Shown here piece after piece: positions 31,711-37,730 of a stretch of 64,000 nt of DNA. Origin of the DNA: a virus; the IMG/VR virus record IMGVR_UViG_3300025000_000067, positions 1-64,000 of that record, one strand, 5' to 3'. Under the pieces are notes generated by a model that saw only the letters and a list, made by a program, of their open reading frames with translations, was not told the DNA's origin and did no database searches. Within the stretch, counting starts at the first letter, position 1, and the number at the start of each line of letters is the position of its first letter. The translations under genes and the position numbers were made by a program.

Positions 31711-31762
31711 AACAGAAAGAGCCCGTGGTTACCTCAGATGAGGGCCACAGGCTCTTTCTGTT
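31711..31762. terminator. hairpin copy 2; probable bidirectional terminator between convergent genes
   Basis: AACAGAAAGAGCCCGTGGTTACCTCAGATGAGGGCCACAGGCTCTTTCTGTT. Confidence 0.75.
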
Positions 31763-32642
31763 TACCATACCATATAGGCCCCAAGGGATCTTCTGAAGCC
31801 AATTCATTTGATGTAAAGAGCCACTGCAGGTCAGTATTGTCTATTCCATAGATAGCGTTCCTCAGCCTCAGAGCGCGGTCTAGGTTTGTCGTGACTGTTA
31901 GGATAAGGGGGAAGGTTCCATAGATCGATTCAAAGCTTTTAGAGGCATAGTAGGCTGTATAGCGCTGGTGTTTCCTTTGGAAGACCGGTAGGCTCATGGT
32001 TCCATTGTCTAATTCTAGGAAAAAGTGGATACCTTCATCTTCTGAAAACCAATACTGGCCATAAGCATCCGGATTACATACCATCTTCTTCCCCCAGAAG
32101 GTGAAACTATGTCGGGTATGGTTTTCTGTTCTGTACCCGGTAACTTCATGCTTATGTTTTCGAGCATTCCGGAGAAGTGAAATGTAGAAGTTATTGATGT
32201 CTACCATATGCTTAAGGTACGGAAGTCTTGTTTCGTTCATTTCATAGGACCATGATAGTTCTTCTACTTCTTGGTTAAGAAGTCCGGCTACAATCTTGGC
32301 ACCCAGTTTATCAAGGATAATATGGCCTTGGCTTGTTCCTTCATTCCCAATGTCTACAAAGAATCGGTCAACGAGTTGAGCATCAAAAAGTTTTCGGATC
32401 CTTCGTCTTGCAATAAGCTCTGATTGAGAGTTTTCAAGTCCTTTAGAGTTGTATCTGTAGTGCATTTCAGCTATTTGTCTGGTGGTTAAGCAGCGTTGAT
32501 AGTAGATAGATAACAGGACTTCTCTATCCCTTGGCGTTAACATAGGGTTCTGGTAAACTTCTCGTATTGACCGCTCAGTGTCCCCCTGTTTTCTGACGAA
32601 TTTATTAATCCTTCGTGAGGTAATTTGTCTAGTTTCTAGCAT
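31734..32642 (-). CDS. replication-relaxation family protein (Replic_Relax, relaxase-like)
   Basis: LTPRDREVL..LTTRQIA winged helix; H...IN; PDAY; FLELDNGTM; K...Y..Y. Confidence 0.9.
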   Translation of the reverse strand: MLETRQITSRRINKFVRKQGDTERSIREVYQNPMLTPRDREVLLSIYYQRCLTTRQIAEMHYRYNSKGLENSQSELIARRRIRKLFDAQLVDRFFVDIGNEGTSQGHIILDKLGAKIVAGLLNQEVEELSWSYEMNETRLPYLKHMVDINNFYISLLRNARKHKHEVTGYRTENHTRHSFTFWGKKMVCNPDAYGQYWFSEDEGIHFFLELDNGTMSLPVFQRKHQRYTAYYASKSFESIYGTFPLILTVTTNLDRALRLRNAIYGIDNTDLQWLFTSNELASEDPLGPIWYGKQKEPVALI

Positions 32643-32653
32643 ACCCTATCCTC

Positions 32654-35131
32654 CTACTTAACTCTCTGGATCTTACCTGTGGCCTTCCCAGTCTTTATAG
32701 AAGCACTCTGGTCTTCGGTAATCTGATTCTTTTGGATGGTACTATATCGGGCTTCTATGTCATCTTTTATTTCTGAGATATGCTTATAATTCCTAGTTTT
32801 ATAAGCATCTTTCCATTTCTTAACTTCAGCTAGCCCAACACTAGGAAAGTAGTCATCCATGTTAAGACAATCAAAAGTGAAAGGACTTGGGTGGATCTTT
32901 TTAAACCGTCCGTAGCCTGTATACTGAACCATAGATGTTAGGTCCTCTTCTGTAACTTCCGGCAGCATACGTTTGATTTTAGGTGCTGAAGATGTCCCTA
33001 TGAGTAGGCTCACTTGGGTGAAGGTGTTGTCTTCGATCATGCCCATAAGCTTAGCTGGGATCTGTTCAACGCTTTGATGGGCTAGGACTAAACCTAGGCC
33101 ATAGCTTCTGGCCATTTCTAAGAAACGCTGAATATCAGATTCTTGGTCGAGGAACATCTCAAATTCGTCTAAGATGGCCACATGGGGTATCCGTTTATCG
33201 ACTTCTGTATCCCCTCTACTAAATACCGCTTTACTGATAAAGGCAGTGAATAGGGTTCCGAAGAAGGAGATAATTTCGTTTTCGTTTTTGTCTAGCGCAA
33301 AGTTGACTATAATAATTGCTTTTTCGTCTAACATCTTTCTCCATTTATACAAGTTTGTCTTTTGACACATGCTATACCGCGGTAATTCATTTTGGGTAAT
33401 GACCTCAAGCTTATTAAGGATAGCTTTAGACTCTGCTTGGCGTGCTCTAATCTTCATGCCTTTGTAGCTTTGCCAGTAGCTTAGGACATCCGGAAATTCT
33501 GTGTCATCTTCCATCTTAGCTAGGGTCCAATCTAAATAATCTTCATCTGTGAACATGCGGTAGACTTCTAGTATAGATCCTTCAGGATTTGTGCTTATGA
33601 CTGCAATGAGGGCTCTTCTGAGGATGCTTTGACTGTGCTCCTTAATAGAACCCTCACTATTGAGTTTTAGGAAGACAGAGACGATCATAGTGGCCAGATT
33701 GTAGGTGCTCATACCAGGCTGTATCAGGAAATTAAGAGGTATAAACTGCGCTATGTCCTGAAGGTCAATGTAATGTACCCGGTGCCATTCACTTTTTGGA
33801 AGATGGGCCATTAGTTCATCGGCCACATCTCCTTTAACGTCAAAGAAGGTCAGACCACAGTGTCTTATAATTTGAAGTCCTAAGAACGATAGCCACCAGC
33901 TTTTTCCGCTACCTGTTCCACCAATGCAGTAGACATGTTGCATAAGCATTTTAATATCTTTAAAAGCTAGGTATTTTAGACGACCTCTAAAGTTTGATCT
34001 TCCGAAGACAATAGCTTGGTCTTTCCACGCTTCTTCAATGGTATTGTACTGATAGACTCCATCAGGTACAGGCATTTTTTTAGCCTGCAGTCGTATGATT
34101 CCTGGGATGTTCTTTGCTGGGAAATGGAGGATCGTTGCAAGCTCTGCTGGGGTAACATAGTTTTCAATAGGGTATGTATGAATTCTTCTTGCTGCATAGT
34201 CTTTCAAGAATTGACTTACCCCGTGTTGGTTAAATAATCTTAAATGTCTTTTATAGTATTTTTCTCGGTAGTCAGAGAAGGGTCTAAAACGATTTTTATC
34301 AGTGGCTGGTGCAAAGGAGCTAATAACTGTGGATAAGCGTGCTCGGGCTTTACCGAAGGCATTGTGGCTGCATACGAGACGTATTTCTAAGTCAAAATAA
34401 ATACCGGCTTCTAGTTTCTTTTGAATTGAGTTTAAACTGGTGTTATGGTCTTTTGATCCAGCATTGCCTGTGAGGGTATAGTGTATAGCTCCTAGTAATG
34501 CTTTGGGGGTTTTCATTAGTCCAGTCCATTTAGCATATGGGTAGTGCATGCGACTAGGTCGTTTACCTGTTTTTTTATATATTTCGTAGTGGCTATTGGC
34601 TATGACTAAGGCTCTATAGGGTACAGGTCTTAGGGTAAATTGAACCCATACTTCTTCTTCATCATCTAGGTTTTGCATGGAGGCGCATAAACTAGCTATC
34701 ATATCTGCTCCGATGCGTTCACCGTCTGACTGTAGAAGATTAAAGAGATAATGGCTGTCAAGTTCTAGCGTGGCACAGGCTACGTTTAAGGCATAGAGTC
34801 TTCCGAAGCGTCCGTAATCTTTTTTAGGTGTAATAATTTCTGCTGATTTGTGGATAGAGTTTATATTGCTCTGGATAAAATCTTTTTCTAGATTTTTTGA
34901 AAGCCAAGTGTATAGGTTAATACCTTTATTGGTTCCTTGGAACTCAAAGCTTAACCAGTCATAGGGTTTTTTAGGGTTATATATCGTATAGAGAGAATCA
35001 AATAGACTATTGTACTGAGATGGCTTAAATTCAGAATCTTTTTCAATGAGTATTTGGTATAGGTTCCCATTCTTAGATCCACTGCTTAAGCGTTTTCGGT
35101 GAATAGGGTACATTAGGCTTTTTATGATCAT
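32654..35131 (-). CDS. VirD4/TraD-like type IV coupling ATPase
   Basis: Walker A GGTGSGKS, FDVKGD, Walker B AILDEF, ARSYGLGLVLAHQSVEQI. Confidence 0.9.
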   Translation of the reverse strand: MIIKSLMYPIHRKRLSSGSKNGNLYQILIEKDSEFKPSQYNSLFDSLYTIYNPKKPYDWLSFEFQGTNKGINLYTWLSKNLEKDFIQSNINSIHKSAEIITPKKDYGRFGRLYALNVACATLELDSHYLFNLLQSDGERIGADMIASLCASMQNLDDEEEVWVQFTLRPVPYRALVIANSHYEIYKKTGKRPSRMHYPYAKWTGLMKTPKALLGAIHYTLTGNAGSKDHNTSLNSIQKKLEAGIYFDLEIRLVCSHNAFGKARARLSTVISSFAPATDKNRFRPFSDYREKYYKRHLRLFNQHGVSQFLKDYAARRIHTYPIENYVTPAELATILHFPAKNIPGIIRLQAKKMPVPDGVYQYNTIEEAWKDQAIVFGRSNFRGRLKYLAFKDIKMLMQHVYCIGGTGSGKSWWLSFLGLQIIRHCGLTFFDVKGDVADELMAHLPKSEWHRVHYIDLQDIAQFIPLNFLIQPGMSTYNLATMIVSVFLKLNSEGSIKEHSQSILRRALIAVISTNPEGSILEVYRMFTDEDYLDWTLAKMEDDTEFPDVLSYWQSYKGMKIRARQAESKAILNKLEVITQNELPRYSMCQKTNLYKWRKMLDEKAIIIVNFALDKNENEIISFFGTLFTAFISKAVFSRGDTEVDKRIPHVAILDEFEMFLDQESDIQRFLEMARSYGLGLVLAHQSVEQIPAKLMGMIEDNTFTQVSLLIGTSSAPKIKRMLPEVTEEDLTSMVQYTGYGRFKKIHPSPFTFDCLNMDDYFPSVGLAEVKKWKDAYKTRNYKHISEIKDDIEARYSTIQKNQITEDQSASIKTGKATGKIQRVK

Positions 35132-35367
35132 GCTGTCATACCACCTTTGACTGCTTCTTTAATAATATTCCATAGGAGCTGGCCAAGGTCTGTTATTGCT
35201 TGACCGGAGTGTAAGTAGAGTACTAACGCATCACGTTTTACTTGTAGGGCATAGATAACTAAATTACACATTTTAACTATAAAGATTAAGATTACACCAG
35301 TAAAAACACTACCGAAAGTTATCTTTAATATCCAAGATTCAATCTCGTTATGTGAAGGTATATGCAT
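35128..35367 (-). CDS. small membrane protein
   Basis: long hydrophobic segment; ATGA-coupled to the ATPase gene. Confidence 0.7.
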   Translation of the reverse strand: MHIPSHNEIESWILKITFGSVFTGVILIFIVKMCNLVIYALQVKRDALVLYLHSGQAITDLGQLLWNIIKEAVKGGMTA

Positions 35368-35376
35368 AATATCCTC

Positions 35377-35823
35377 CTAAACGCTAAGTAACGTTTTACA
35401 AGCAGCATAGATATCATTAAATAACCCAATAACTTCATAAAGTATAATTCCACCACCGACAAAGGCAACAAGAGGAATAACATCACCGCGTCCTGTAAAC
35501 TTTAAAAATGAACTTACAACTAAAGTAAAAAAGCCAACAACAAGCATATGGAGTAATATAGCTCCTTTCCCTCCCCAAAAACTTGTAGGTACGACTGTTC
35601 CTGATGTAACAGCTAGCGCTGGGTGCATAAAGTTAAAGAGAGCTGAACCAGGTAGTAGAATATTAAGAGTTGTAAAAGCTATACTAGGTGCTAAAGCAAC
35701 AGCTAGATTAACTATTTTTTGGTGTTTTTTGTACCAACGTATAAAACTTCGATTAATAAATACTAATTCAGAATCTAAATACTTTAATTCAGACAACTTT
35801 CCAATTACTTGTACTTTTTTCAT
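35377..35823 (-). CDS. membrane protein with C-terminal SpoIIIAC/AD-like domain
   Basis: ungapped register match of VG..L...GR.D....V...G...IL..V....ND.Y...K to the SpoIIIAC pattern (recalled, not searched); leader ends in ALA. Confidence 0.6.
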   Translation of the reverse strand: MKKVQVIGKLSELKYLDSELVFINRSFIRWYKKHQKIVNLAVALAPSIAFTTLNILLPGSALFNFMHPALAVTSGTVVPTSFWGGKGAILLHMLVVGFFTLVVSSFLKFTGRGDVIPLVAFVGGGIILYEVIGLFNDIYAACKTLLSV

Positions 35824-35945
35824 AAGACACTTCCTTTTTAGATATACTGTGGTGTATTTTTATGTTAAACATTAGATTTACATGCAAGTACCAATAAATT
35901 AAGAAATAGTATCTCAGGTATATCTTTATTGAATAATACAAAAAG

Positions 35946-35985
35946 AAATGCTAAGAAGCTTGCTGTCAGCGGTTTCTTAGCATTT
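35946..35985. terminator. hairpin upstream of the transfer operon (terminator or oriT candidate)
   Basis: AAATGCTAAGAAGC..GTTTCTTAGCATTT. Confidence 0.55.
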
Positions 35986-36080
35986 TTATATAGACTAGTT
36001 TATTTCTTTTTTCTATTTTTAATATTTAAATTTACAATTCTCAAAGTGAGGAGGATTTCTTTTTCTCTCTTTTCTTCTTC

Positions 36081-36425
36081 CTACCATATCTTTAGTTGAA
36101 ATCGTTGTTTCCTTGGAAACCAAGAAATCAACTTATCACTCAAAATATGAACAACAGCTCCTAAAGCTATAAACTCAAAAACTACTACACCAAACAATAA
36201 GAAAGGAAAAGCTAACAATAAAATACCAAATAAGCTATGACAATGCCCTCTGTGTTTCATCCATCGACTAAAAATATTATATCGACCCAATGTTGATGTT
36301 CGGAGATCAATATCAGGTAATAGACTTCCAAAAAGAATACAAAAAAACAATAAAGGACTTTGAACTATAAACAACCCAACTACTGATCCTATAATAAGAT
36401 GACCTAAAAAGTTGAATACAATCAC
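36081..36425 (-). CDS. YdjM-like membrane metal-dependent hydrolase
   Basis: GH, GSLLPDID, HRGHCHS, HILSD. Confidence 0.88.
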   Translation of the reverse strand: MIVFNFLGHLIIGSVVGLFIVQSPLLFFCILFGSLLPDIDLRTSTLGRYNIFSRWMKHRGHCHSLFGILLLAFPFLLFGVVVFEFIALGAVVHILSDKLISWFPRKQRFQLKIW

Positions 36426-36450
36426 CTTCTCTCTTTTAAGTTGATAAATA

Positions 36451-36480
36451 TAGTATGTTCAATTTCAAGTTCATCTATCC
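36451..36480 (-). promoter_or_regulatory. sigma-G-type (forespore) promoter
   Basis: on minus: GGATA-N18-CATACTA. Confidence 0.6.
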
Positions 36481-36489
36481 TACCAAATT

Positions 36490-36744
36490 TTAGAATTTAT
36501 TTTTATACAGAATATTAGCTTTTAAAGATCCCTCAGGCTGCTTTTTAACTGTAGGCTCTTCAGGTATTACCCAAGGTTCAGGAGTCTTAGGGACTTCTGG
36601 AATAGCCCTCATCACTGGCGACCCCTTCTCTATCTGCATAGCTTTACGGTAAACCTCTTTAAGTCGTCCGGTCTTATTCTTATACCGCTCCAAATCTCTT
36701 ATAATATCTGCATCATCTGTAGGATGTAACCTAAACCCAGCCAT
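36490..36744 (-). CDS. ParR-like RHH adaptor
   Basis: FRL..DDADII..LE...N.T..LKE.YR; immediately downstream of parM. Confidence 0.7.
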   Translation of the reverse strand: MAGFRLHPTDDADIIRDLERYKNKTGRLKEVYRKAMQIEKGSPVMRAIPEVPKTPEPWVIPEEPTVKKQPEGSLKANILYKNKF

Positions 36745-36752
36745 AGCTTAAA

Positions 36753-37730
36753 TCACCCCTCTGAGAGCTTAAGAAGCCCGTATTTCCGGTAACCATTAGC
36801 ATTTGCAAGCTCTGCATTATCCATAGTAAGGCAAGGTACACCTGTAAACTCAGTAATGTAGTCTGTATAAACATGAGCCCCACCACCACAAAGGATCACC
36901 GCTGAAAACCTTCTGAAGTCTGGTATATGAAGACTAAGCTCATCTTGTAGTGTAGGTAGCCTGACTTCAATAGCCTTTCTAACAAGTTCATGAACCTCTA
37001 CCTTTTTACCACCTAGCTTTAAAAGACCTGTACGTAAGACTCGATCCACTTCCATAGGCTGAGGTAAAAAACTAAATGAGTGTGAGATAAGCTTTCTAAG
37101 TTCTTTTTGTACTTCATGAACTCCTTCCCAGATAGTAAAGGAGTCCTGTGAGAAGGCACCTTCCTCCATTATGCATCCATCCGTTGACTTACCACCTATG
37201 TCAAGGATTAAGAGGTCTTCAGAAGCCAGCTCTGTGTTCCTCTCTTCCCCCTCAGCATCCAGTACAAAGTCAAAAAATGCCCCGGCAGACTGGGGAAGGA
37301 CTAAAGAATCATTGACTTTAACAAGGCGCTGCACAGCATTAAAGCCGAAGTTAAAACCCCCCTTTAACCGTTCAGCAAAAGCTAGCTTAGAAGCTTCACG
37401 CTTATACTCTTCAACCGGTAGGCCAGATACAAGTAAATCAATAATACTAACACCTGTAGATTCTTGGTAGAGTCCTAAAATTGTGAGTAACTTCGGTAGA
37501 TCCGATTCAGAGGACAACCGCTCAGACTTAAAATCAAAAGATCCTTTAGACCCTACGTTCCATGATCCCCCATGCTCCGTTGTAATAAGATATCCTTCTG
37601 AATCATTTAGATCTCCCATAATAACTTCTGAACGCCTTTTGCTAAGTGACGGGCAAGTATCATCCCAGTCTTTTCCTACCCCTTTAAGTTGGACAAAGCC
37701 AAGGTCAGCACCAACTACATTTTTCTTCAT
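36753..37730 (-). CDS. parM: ParM/StbA actin-like partitioning ATPase
   Basis: ADLGFVQLK, SGLP, PQSAGA, LDIGGKSTD, LCGGGA, ANANGY. Confidence 0.92.
   Translation of the reverse strand: MKKNVVGADLGFVQLKGVGKDWDDTCPSLSKRRSEVIMGDLNDSEGYLITTEHGGSWNVGSKGSFDFKSERLSSESDLPKLLTILGLYQESTGVSIIDLLVSGLPVEEYKREASKLAFAERLKGGFNFGFNAVQRLVKVNDSLVLPQSAGAFFDFVLDAEGEERNTELASEDLLILDIGGKSTDGCIMEEGAFSQDSFTIWEGVHEVQKELRKLISHSFSFLPQPMEVDRVLRTGLLKLGGKKVEVHELVRKAIEVRLPTLQDELSLHIPDFRRFSAVILCGGGAHVYTDYITEFTGVPCLTMDNAELANANGYRKYGLLKLSEG

Follow-up and report, generated by a model that had tools for sequence, protein, structure and literature searches.

SpoIIIAC and SpoIIIAD are membrane subunits of the SpoIIIA-SpoIIQ complex, which links the mother cell and the forespore, and we know of no role or relatives assigned to either protein. 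The phage system closest to the locus described here was named the 'DNA translocation operon' by Pathria et al. in 2012 in phage 0305phi8-36, where it contains a MobC-like relaxase (orf200), a translocase (orf201), a VirB6 homologue (orf203) and an MreB-like protein (orf207); partial versions were reported in SPO1, GBSV1, BV1 and the Gamma group (PMC3357382). We analyzed a minus-strand gene at positions 35377-35823 of a 64,000-nucleotide stretch of viral DNA (the window), which is the first 64 kb of the 102,131-bp record IMGVR_UViG_3300025000_000067, a phage of spore formers rated complete by CheckV. The gene encodes a 148-residue protein, here called AC148, and heads an operon whose gene content identifies it as the published DNA translocation operon, an identity missed by the initial annotation of this locus. 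AC148 occupies the pilin slot of this cassette, yet its C-terminal hairpin is of the SpoIIIAC type according to profile comparison. Our favored explanation, to which we give about an even chance of being correct, is that AC148 is a small membrane subunit of the phage operon and, together with the 79-residue protein TM79, anchors the ATPase encoded by the operon at the membrane.

The relationship of AC148 to SpoIIIAC was evaluated with family profiles and with controlled profile-profile alignments. AC148 scored 16.7 bits on Pfam PF06686 (E 0.0086; 18.2 bits in the six-frame search), under the 24-bit gathering cut-off of the family, with residues 90-139 covering profile positions 1-50 of 56, and 18.2 bits on TIGR02848 (E 0.0026), not reaching the equivalog cut-off of 56.65 bits. 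Both profiles were matched by all 34 aligned AC148 homologues, with best E-values of 3e-6 for PF06686 and 1.2e-5 for TIGR02848. The spoIIIAC and spoIIIAD genes were gathered from 34 Bacilli genomes, and hhalign aligned the C-terminal domain of AC148 with the profile of 28 SpoIIIAC sequences at a probability of 95.2% (E 2.8e-8, 61 columns ungapped, ~16% identity). The real alignment scored 41.8, far above the reversed SpoIIIAC alignment (9.4) and 30 column shuffles (16.7 at most), so the match exceeds chance or composition. SpoIIIAD gave no match (0.6%), and SpoIIIAC itself aligned with SpoIIIAD at 90.4%, more weakly than the AC148 hairpin aligned with SpoIIIAC. When the spoIIIA loci of the Bacilli genomes were searched with an HMM of the phage hairpin, it selected the SpoIIIAC ORFs and nothing else. 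The two proteins have in common a two-helix membrane hairpin of ~60 residues in ungapped register, with the shared positions G, L-K, G-[KR]-x-[DE], G, L, V, [LI]-[FY] and K.

Six more distant relatives of AC148 likewise match SpoIIIAC (hhalign 92.4%). One distant relative, P0051, combines a classical signal peptide with the hairpin and scores 31.5 bits on PF06686, above the cut-off; three scans of viral contigs found no genomic context for the distant relatives P0047-P0052, their clusters carry no informative names, and tblastn of the phage collection with AC148 and with P0051 returned no match. Ammoniphilus resinae carries a phage-type homologue that also passes the PF06686 cut-off (24.6 bits) and is labelled SpoIIIAC/SpoIIIAD family protein by NCBI, and this organism has its own SpoIIIAC (66 bits) and SpoIIIAD (two repeats, 50 and 73 bits).

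On this evidence the AC148 hairpin is homologous to SpoIIIAC and AC148 is classified as a divergent member of the SpoIIIAC/AD family, but not as a SpoIIIAC orthologue. AC148 differs from SpoIIIAC by an 83-residue N-terminal leader region, which SpoIIIAC lacks, and by its place in a phage cassette with a VirD4-type ATPase and not between spoIIIAB and spoIIIAD; host-type spoIIIA operons look different, and no SpoIIIAB, SpoIIIAE or second PF06686 gene was found in the phage genome. The ~16% identity to SpoIIIAC, compared with 71% within its own family, points to an old separate lineage and not to a recent copy of a host part.

Several additional PF06686-type matches were recorded. One in genome G028 was set aside as belonging to an ordinary, divergent spoIIIA operon. 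A 238-residue ORF outside the spoIIIA operon of another Bacilli genome (G020:C17, locus L064, 9154-9870) has a weak PF06686 match of 21.8 bits. A tblastn search of the phage collection with the Ammoniphilus SpoIIIAC detected seven unannotated human-faecal 'Bacteriophage sp.' contigs (including MT839853.1, MT836295.1 and MT835798.1) at 37-45% identity. These contigs could carry genuine phage copies, or they could be spoIIIA operons of bacteria that were misfiled.

The AC148 gene is real, conserved and under selection. Homologues number 36 among 5.8 billion clustered proteins, with 22 representatives among 1.84 billion, and their mean pairwise identity is 71% over the C-terminal 65 residues and 32% over the N-terminal part. 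The AlphaFold2 model has helices at residues 86-110 and 113-147 (pLDDT ~90-97 over residues 90-148), and hydropathy analysis gave hydrophobic segments at 84-111 and 113-136, corresponding to the hairpin helices, and at 37-58 in the leader. The hairpin (codons 84-148, positions 35380-35574, minus strand) thus has two transmembrane helices connected by a short basic loop, K-F-T-G-R-G-D, as in the PF06686 family. The N-terminal part (codons 1-71, positions 35611-35823, minus strand) contains a conserved R-x-F-x-x-W motif, a basic stretch at residues 31-36, a hydrophobic segment at 37-66 and P-A-L-A at 68-71, and P68 is retained in 29 of 34 homologues. The initial annotation had described both a C-terminal two-helix hairpin and a layout similar to a pilin-like precursor (basic leader, hydrophobic segment, A-L-A site), and the sequence, model and hydropathy data agree with it on both points.

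In six homologues (P0009, P0012, P0023, P0025, P0028 and P0030) one to three extra N-terminal copies of a ~25-residue unit (F-P-x-A ... D ... G ... E) precede the conserved R-x-F-x-R-W-Y motif (alignment columns 1-100). The cytoplasmic N-end of the family may therefore form a small repeated domain with its own function.

Searches of known structures were not informative on the origin of the hairpin. Foldseek of the AC148 model against PDB returned nothing at E <= 0.001, and VIA-align against 48,161 chains returned generic helical hairpins alone (Z <= 8.5) with no SpoIIIAC structure among the matches, and so the fold searches do not help to choose between a pilin and SpoIIIAC. Sequence searches against PDB gave no match for the AC148 family alignment or for the ATPase.

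The pilin families are another possible source of such a hairpin. Two related phages encode pilin-type proteins in the equivalent position. In phage G, gp150 (154 aa) matches T4SS_pilin (PF18895) at 27.4 bits and also touches TrbC; downstream of it are a TrbL/VirB6-like protein, a VirB4-like protein and then gp156, an 825-residue homologue of the ATPase in the window. In 0305phi8-36, gp204 (171 aa) matches PF18895 at 19.6 bits. Both proteins resemble AC148 in having a cytoplasmic N-end, then a long hydrophobic leader with P-x-x-A at its end, and a hairpin at the C-terminus, in a total length of 148-171 aa for the three, and in a slot after ParM and an adaptor and before the ~800-aa ATPase and the Replic_Relax nuclease. 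The AC148 gene lies ahead of the transfer ATPase in its operon, as pilin genes do. The hairpins of gp150 and gp204 match T4SS_pilin/TrbC, whereas that of AC148 matches SpoIIIAC, and the cassettes of these phages include a VirB6-like gene, plus a VirB4-like gene in phage G, both of which are absent from the phage studied here.

AC148 could accordingly be a true VirB2/T4SS_pilin homologue whose resemblance to SpoIIIAC reflects convergence of short hydrophobic hairpins, and the common slot, length and leader layout speak for this possibility, together with TrbC matches of two of the 34 homologues at E 0.09 (none of the 34 touched PF18895) and an 11-residue N-terminal resemblance to gp150. The profile comparison points the other way: hhalign gave the AC148 hairpin 0.1-0.5% with TrbC/VirB2 (PF04956) and 1.7% with T4SS_pilin, while the positive control, TrbC against T4SS_pilin, gave 96%; the SpoIIIAC match survives the reversal and shuffling controls; and the resemblance to the gp150 N-end, 11 columns at 6.7% probability, was rejected as too weak to use. 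We regard pilin homology as highly improbable. By these profiles AC148 is not a detectable pilin, and its hairpin is clearly closer to SpoIIIAC than to VirB2/TrbC or T4SS_pilin. The gap-free alignment with SpoIIIAC claimed initially was recovered with clean controls, and neither a lack of SpoIIIAC/AD similarity nor a better match to VirB2, the two results named at that time as speaking against it, was found (95.2% for SpoIIIAC, 0.1-1.7% for the pilins). The occurrence of pilin-type proteins in the equivalent slot of 0305phi8-36 and G makes a conjugation-style membrane subunit the simplest role for AC148, in line with our favored explanation.

The AC148 gene begins a new transcription unit and is tightly connected to the genes that follow it. 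A terminator-like stem-loop with a U-run was detected upstream (35936-35991, minus strand; -16.5 kcal/mol, z -4.4, with none of 200 shuffles folding as well), closing the preceding ParM/YdjM unit. Downstream, the AC148 stop codon is followed by a 9-nt gap containing GGAGGA and the start of TM79 (35128-35367, minus strand), a 79-aa single-span membrane protein recognized by hydropathy, synteny and the alignment of its homologues. The TM79 stop overlaps the ATPase start by ATGA, and the nuclease gene begins 11 nt past the ATPase. The proposed position of AC148 at the head of the operon is supported by this arrangement. Every related locus of sufficient length has the genes in the order AC148, TM79, ATPase, Replic_Relax; these nine loci comprise four IMG/VR phages (20-105 kb), four contigs from metagenomes and the contig of Ammoniphilus.

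In the closest relative (L056, 6001-6693, compared with window positions 35128-35823), AC148 and TM79 are ~70% identical and the flanking ATPase, nuclease and ParM 92-95%. The AC148 changes are mostly in the leader, a region that may thus co-evolve rapidly or be under relaxed constraint.

The upstream regions of seven loci were compared (window 35830-35900, minus strand; L003, L004, L006, L007, L056 and L060). Two short boxes, CATA(A/C)AAT-like and GATACA/ATATAC-like, were detected 25-55 nt before the start codon in most of them, and the full box occurs once in the window, with no repeats elsewhere in it. No consistent -35 element was found across the seven regions, the boxes point to no particular sigma factor, and no sporulation-type promoter was established for them.

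The conserved gene order bears on a possible interference with sporulation, in which AC148 would be a decoy SpoIIIAC that poisons the host channel, blocks spore formation and keeps the host productive for the phage. In its favor, the channel subunit to which the hairpin is homologous is essential, and spore yield can be lowered by homologues of sporulation regulators that phages encode (PMC9429907). However, the strict operon linkage and the translational coupling with the ATPase and the nuclease in all loci suggest a part of a shared machine and not a stand-alone decoy, and the identity to the host SpoIIIAC is low. We consider the decoy function very unlikely, and the gene order fits a membrane subunit of the translocation operon.

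The operon is located in the single large minus-strand block of the window (31734-37730), which has a lower G+C content; genes for helicase, primase, DNA polymerase, terminase, portal and tail are on the plus strand. Its last gene (31734-32642, minus strand) encodes a 302-aa MobC-like protein with a PD-(D/E)XK nuclease assignment (Replic_Relax, PF13814, 86.8 bits; phrog_9381), the putative relaxase or nickase of the cassette; the family assignment follows PMC3424549 and the relaxase reading follows PMC3357382. Beside it is the gene for an 825-aa ATPase of the VirD4/VirB4/HerA clade (32654-35131, minus strand), so that the combination of a MobC/Replic_Relax-type nuclease and a translocase ATPase of ~800-900 aa typical of the DNA translocation operon is present. 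The same pair was found in SPO1 (gp27.3/27.4), Kirov (18/19) and 0305phi8-36 (gp200/201). An MreB/ParM-like protein is encoded in the same block: the region 36490-37730 (minus strand) contains a 325-aa ParM-like actin (ORF 36753-37730) and an 84-aa adaptor-like protein (PF17989, PF21522, phrog_691; synteny), a partition pair joined to the cassette. A VirB6-like protein (PF19597) was not found in the 102-kb genome, and the membrane proteins of the block besides AC148 are TM79 and a YdjM-like protein alone. The latter (114 aa, 36081-36425, minus strand; PF04307, 47.8 bits) is a conserved neighbor, by synteny, upstream of the terminator. Megablast of the block against the phage and plasmid collections gave no match.

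Relatives of the cassette nuclease were found in 39 phage records, all of them Bacillus phages. In Kirov the string includes ParM, a ParG-like protein, small proteins, an M23 peptidase, a TrwB-like ATPase and Replic_Relax, and in SPO1 the same cassette extends from gp27.9 to gp27.3. The small proteins of the SPO1 and Kirov cassettes have no PF06686 or pilin match, and SPO1 gp27.8 is not a membrane protein. The M23 peptidase of Kirov (L061, 2306-3001) is encoded between the small membrane proteins and the ATPase. It could act on the cell wall, like the hydrolases of Gram-positive transfer systems, and the M23 fold occurs in SpoIIQ as well.

The partner ATPase scored 23.1 bits on PF02534 (VirD4/TraG), above the cut-off of 20.1 bits, and matched phrog_5156 end to end. 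Hydropathy analysis detected no hydrophobic segment in residues 1-600, and the sole peak, at 620-638 (1.63), is inside the ATPase core; the N-terminal transmembrane domain of coupling proteins is thus missing, and the description of this protein as an ATPase with no obvious membrane segment was correct. In the structure model (pLDDT 84.7) the C-terminal domain is equally close to VirB4 (Z 27.7, rmsd 3.1, 336 residues) and TrwB (Z 27.0, rmsd 3.9, 370 residues), and for the complete chain 565 residues could be aligned with TrwK/VirB4 of R388 (Z 20.9, rmsd 14.2). The ATPase has a two-domain build. No family in the local Pfam library matches its first 350 residues; a precomputed PF26449, which is not part of that library, is assigned to homologues.

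Coupling proteins that lack a membrane domain are reported to cooperate with small membrane partners, for example TraJ with TraI of pIP501 (PMC7434980). The phage operon resembles this pair in that a VirD4-type ATPase lacking the N-terminal membrane domain is encoded beside a small membrane protein thought to recruit it, and differs from it in that pIP501, unlike this phage, encodes a complete transfer system of 15 genes; no sequence relation between the two is known. A second comparison is with VirB2-VirB3-VirB4 of the type IV secretion systems, where the order is likewise a leader-bearing hairpin protein, a small membrane protein and a large ATPase without membrane segments, and the alignment of the ATPase model with TrwK/VirB4 of R388 belongs here. 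On the other side, Pfam places the phage ATPase with VirD4/TraG, TM79 has no VirB3 match, and the C-terminal domain does not distinguish VirB4 from TrwB.

According to the favored explanation, AC148 would be made as a precursor that is inserted into the membrane by its short cytoplasmic N-end and long hydrophobic leader. Signal peptidase would probably remove the leader at the P-x-x-A site, a cleavage suggested by the leader layout, leaving a SpoIIIAC/AD-family hairpin of ~75 aa with both ends outside and the basic loop in the cytoplasm. The hairpin and the co-translated TM79 would form a membrane platform that holds the ATPase, which has no membrane segment of its own, at the membrane, resembling TraI with TraJ of pIP501, or VirB2/VirB3 with VirB4, and this membrane part perhaps lines a passage. 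The Replic_Relax nuclease would prepare the phage DNA, by nicking or cutting it, for the ATPase to move. Physical contact between AC148 and the ATPase is inferred from the conserved operon, and movement of phage DNA from the VirD4/VirB4/HerA clade of the ATPase, with the destination of the DNA equally hypothetical.

Several observations weigh against this explanation. The PF06686 score of AC148 itself is below the family cut-off. At the site aligned with P-A-L-A the -3/-1 small-residue rule is obeyed in just 21 of 34 homologues, which makes the cleavage uncertain, and W30 in the N-end motif R-x-F-x-x-W is invariant across the homologues, suggesting a role beyond targeting, so that AC148 may remain a three-span protein. 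The phage genome has no VirB4 or VirB6 homologue and therefore encodes no complete channel; the channel would be either very small or borrowed from the host. Deletion of the operon in 0305phi8-36 caused no growth defect in the laboratory (PMC3357382), which leaves any function of the cassette unproven.

A channel borrowed from the host is the central element of a spore-entry adaptor, a reading that builds on the initial annotation, in which the protein could dock the ATPase onto the host channel or build a mimic of it. In the mother-cell membrane the hairpin would insert into the SpoIIIA-SpoIIQ channel of the host, or imitate a part of it, and the ATPase could then pump the phage genome into the forespore, producing a 'virospore'. 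The hairpin is closest to SpoIIIAC and not to SpoIIIAD or the pilins; the sole cultured carrier, A. resinae, is a spore former with its own spoIIIAC and spoIIIAD; the phage records with the cassette nuclease are exclusively from Bacillus phages, and the cassette is confined to phages of Bacillus and related hosts; a ParM partition pair accompanies it; and entrapment of phage genomes in spores is documented (PMC9429907). Against this, an identity to SpoIIIAC so far below that within the phage family is unlike a mimic tuned to the host complex, other SpoIIIA parts are missing from the phage genome, and no sporulation promoter could be assigned from the seven upstream regions. Phages G and 0305phi8-36 have pilin-type proteins in the same slot, suggesting that the cassette does not need a SpoIIIAC-like part, and DNA passage via the SpoIIIA-SpoIIQ channel has no known precedent. 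We consider spore entry unlikely, and a membrane subunit anchoring the ATPase is preferred.

The 102-kb genome has the ParM partition pair, but a search for a tyrosine integrase in it found none. The phage could thus be lytic or be maintained as a plasmid prophage; the lytic phage SPO1 carries the same ParM-linked cassette.

The cassette itself was known before, as was the SpoIIIAC/SpoIIIAD label on one homologue in the NCBI annotation, and our literature search found no paper on a phage SpoIIIAC homologue. The new elements are the controlled evidence of homology and the replacement of a VirB2-type protein by this hairpin in an otherwise equivalent operon. AC148 is a SpoIIIAC/AD-family member predicted to work outside sporulation, in an operon with a VirD4/VirB4-type ATPase and in the slot that is VirB2-type in sister phages. 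This provides a functional clue for the SpoIIIAC/AD-family hairpins, which may provide a secretion ATPase with a platform in the membrane or with the lining of a channel.

In the literature the SpoIIIA-SpoIIQ complex is described as 'cobbled together', with other secretion systems as the source of its parts (PMC2703783). A more speculative and quite unlikely extension of our results is that SpoIIIAC-type and VirB2-type hairpins are interchangeable in the same phage cassette, that the long-sought VirB2-like inner subunits of the SpoIIIA-SpoIIQ channel may be SpoIIIAC and SpoIIIAD, and that in this phage lineage the ATPase, by means of the SpoIIIAC-type subunit, may use the host channel to move the phage genome from the mother cell into the forespore.

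Taken together, the profile comparison, the conserved operon structure and the comparison with the sister phages add a defined component to the phage DNA translocation operon, which is present in many Bacillus phages including SPO1 and whose function has been open since 2012. The link to spore entry, if true, would explain the persistence of non-integrating phages in spores.

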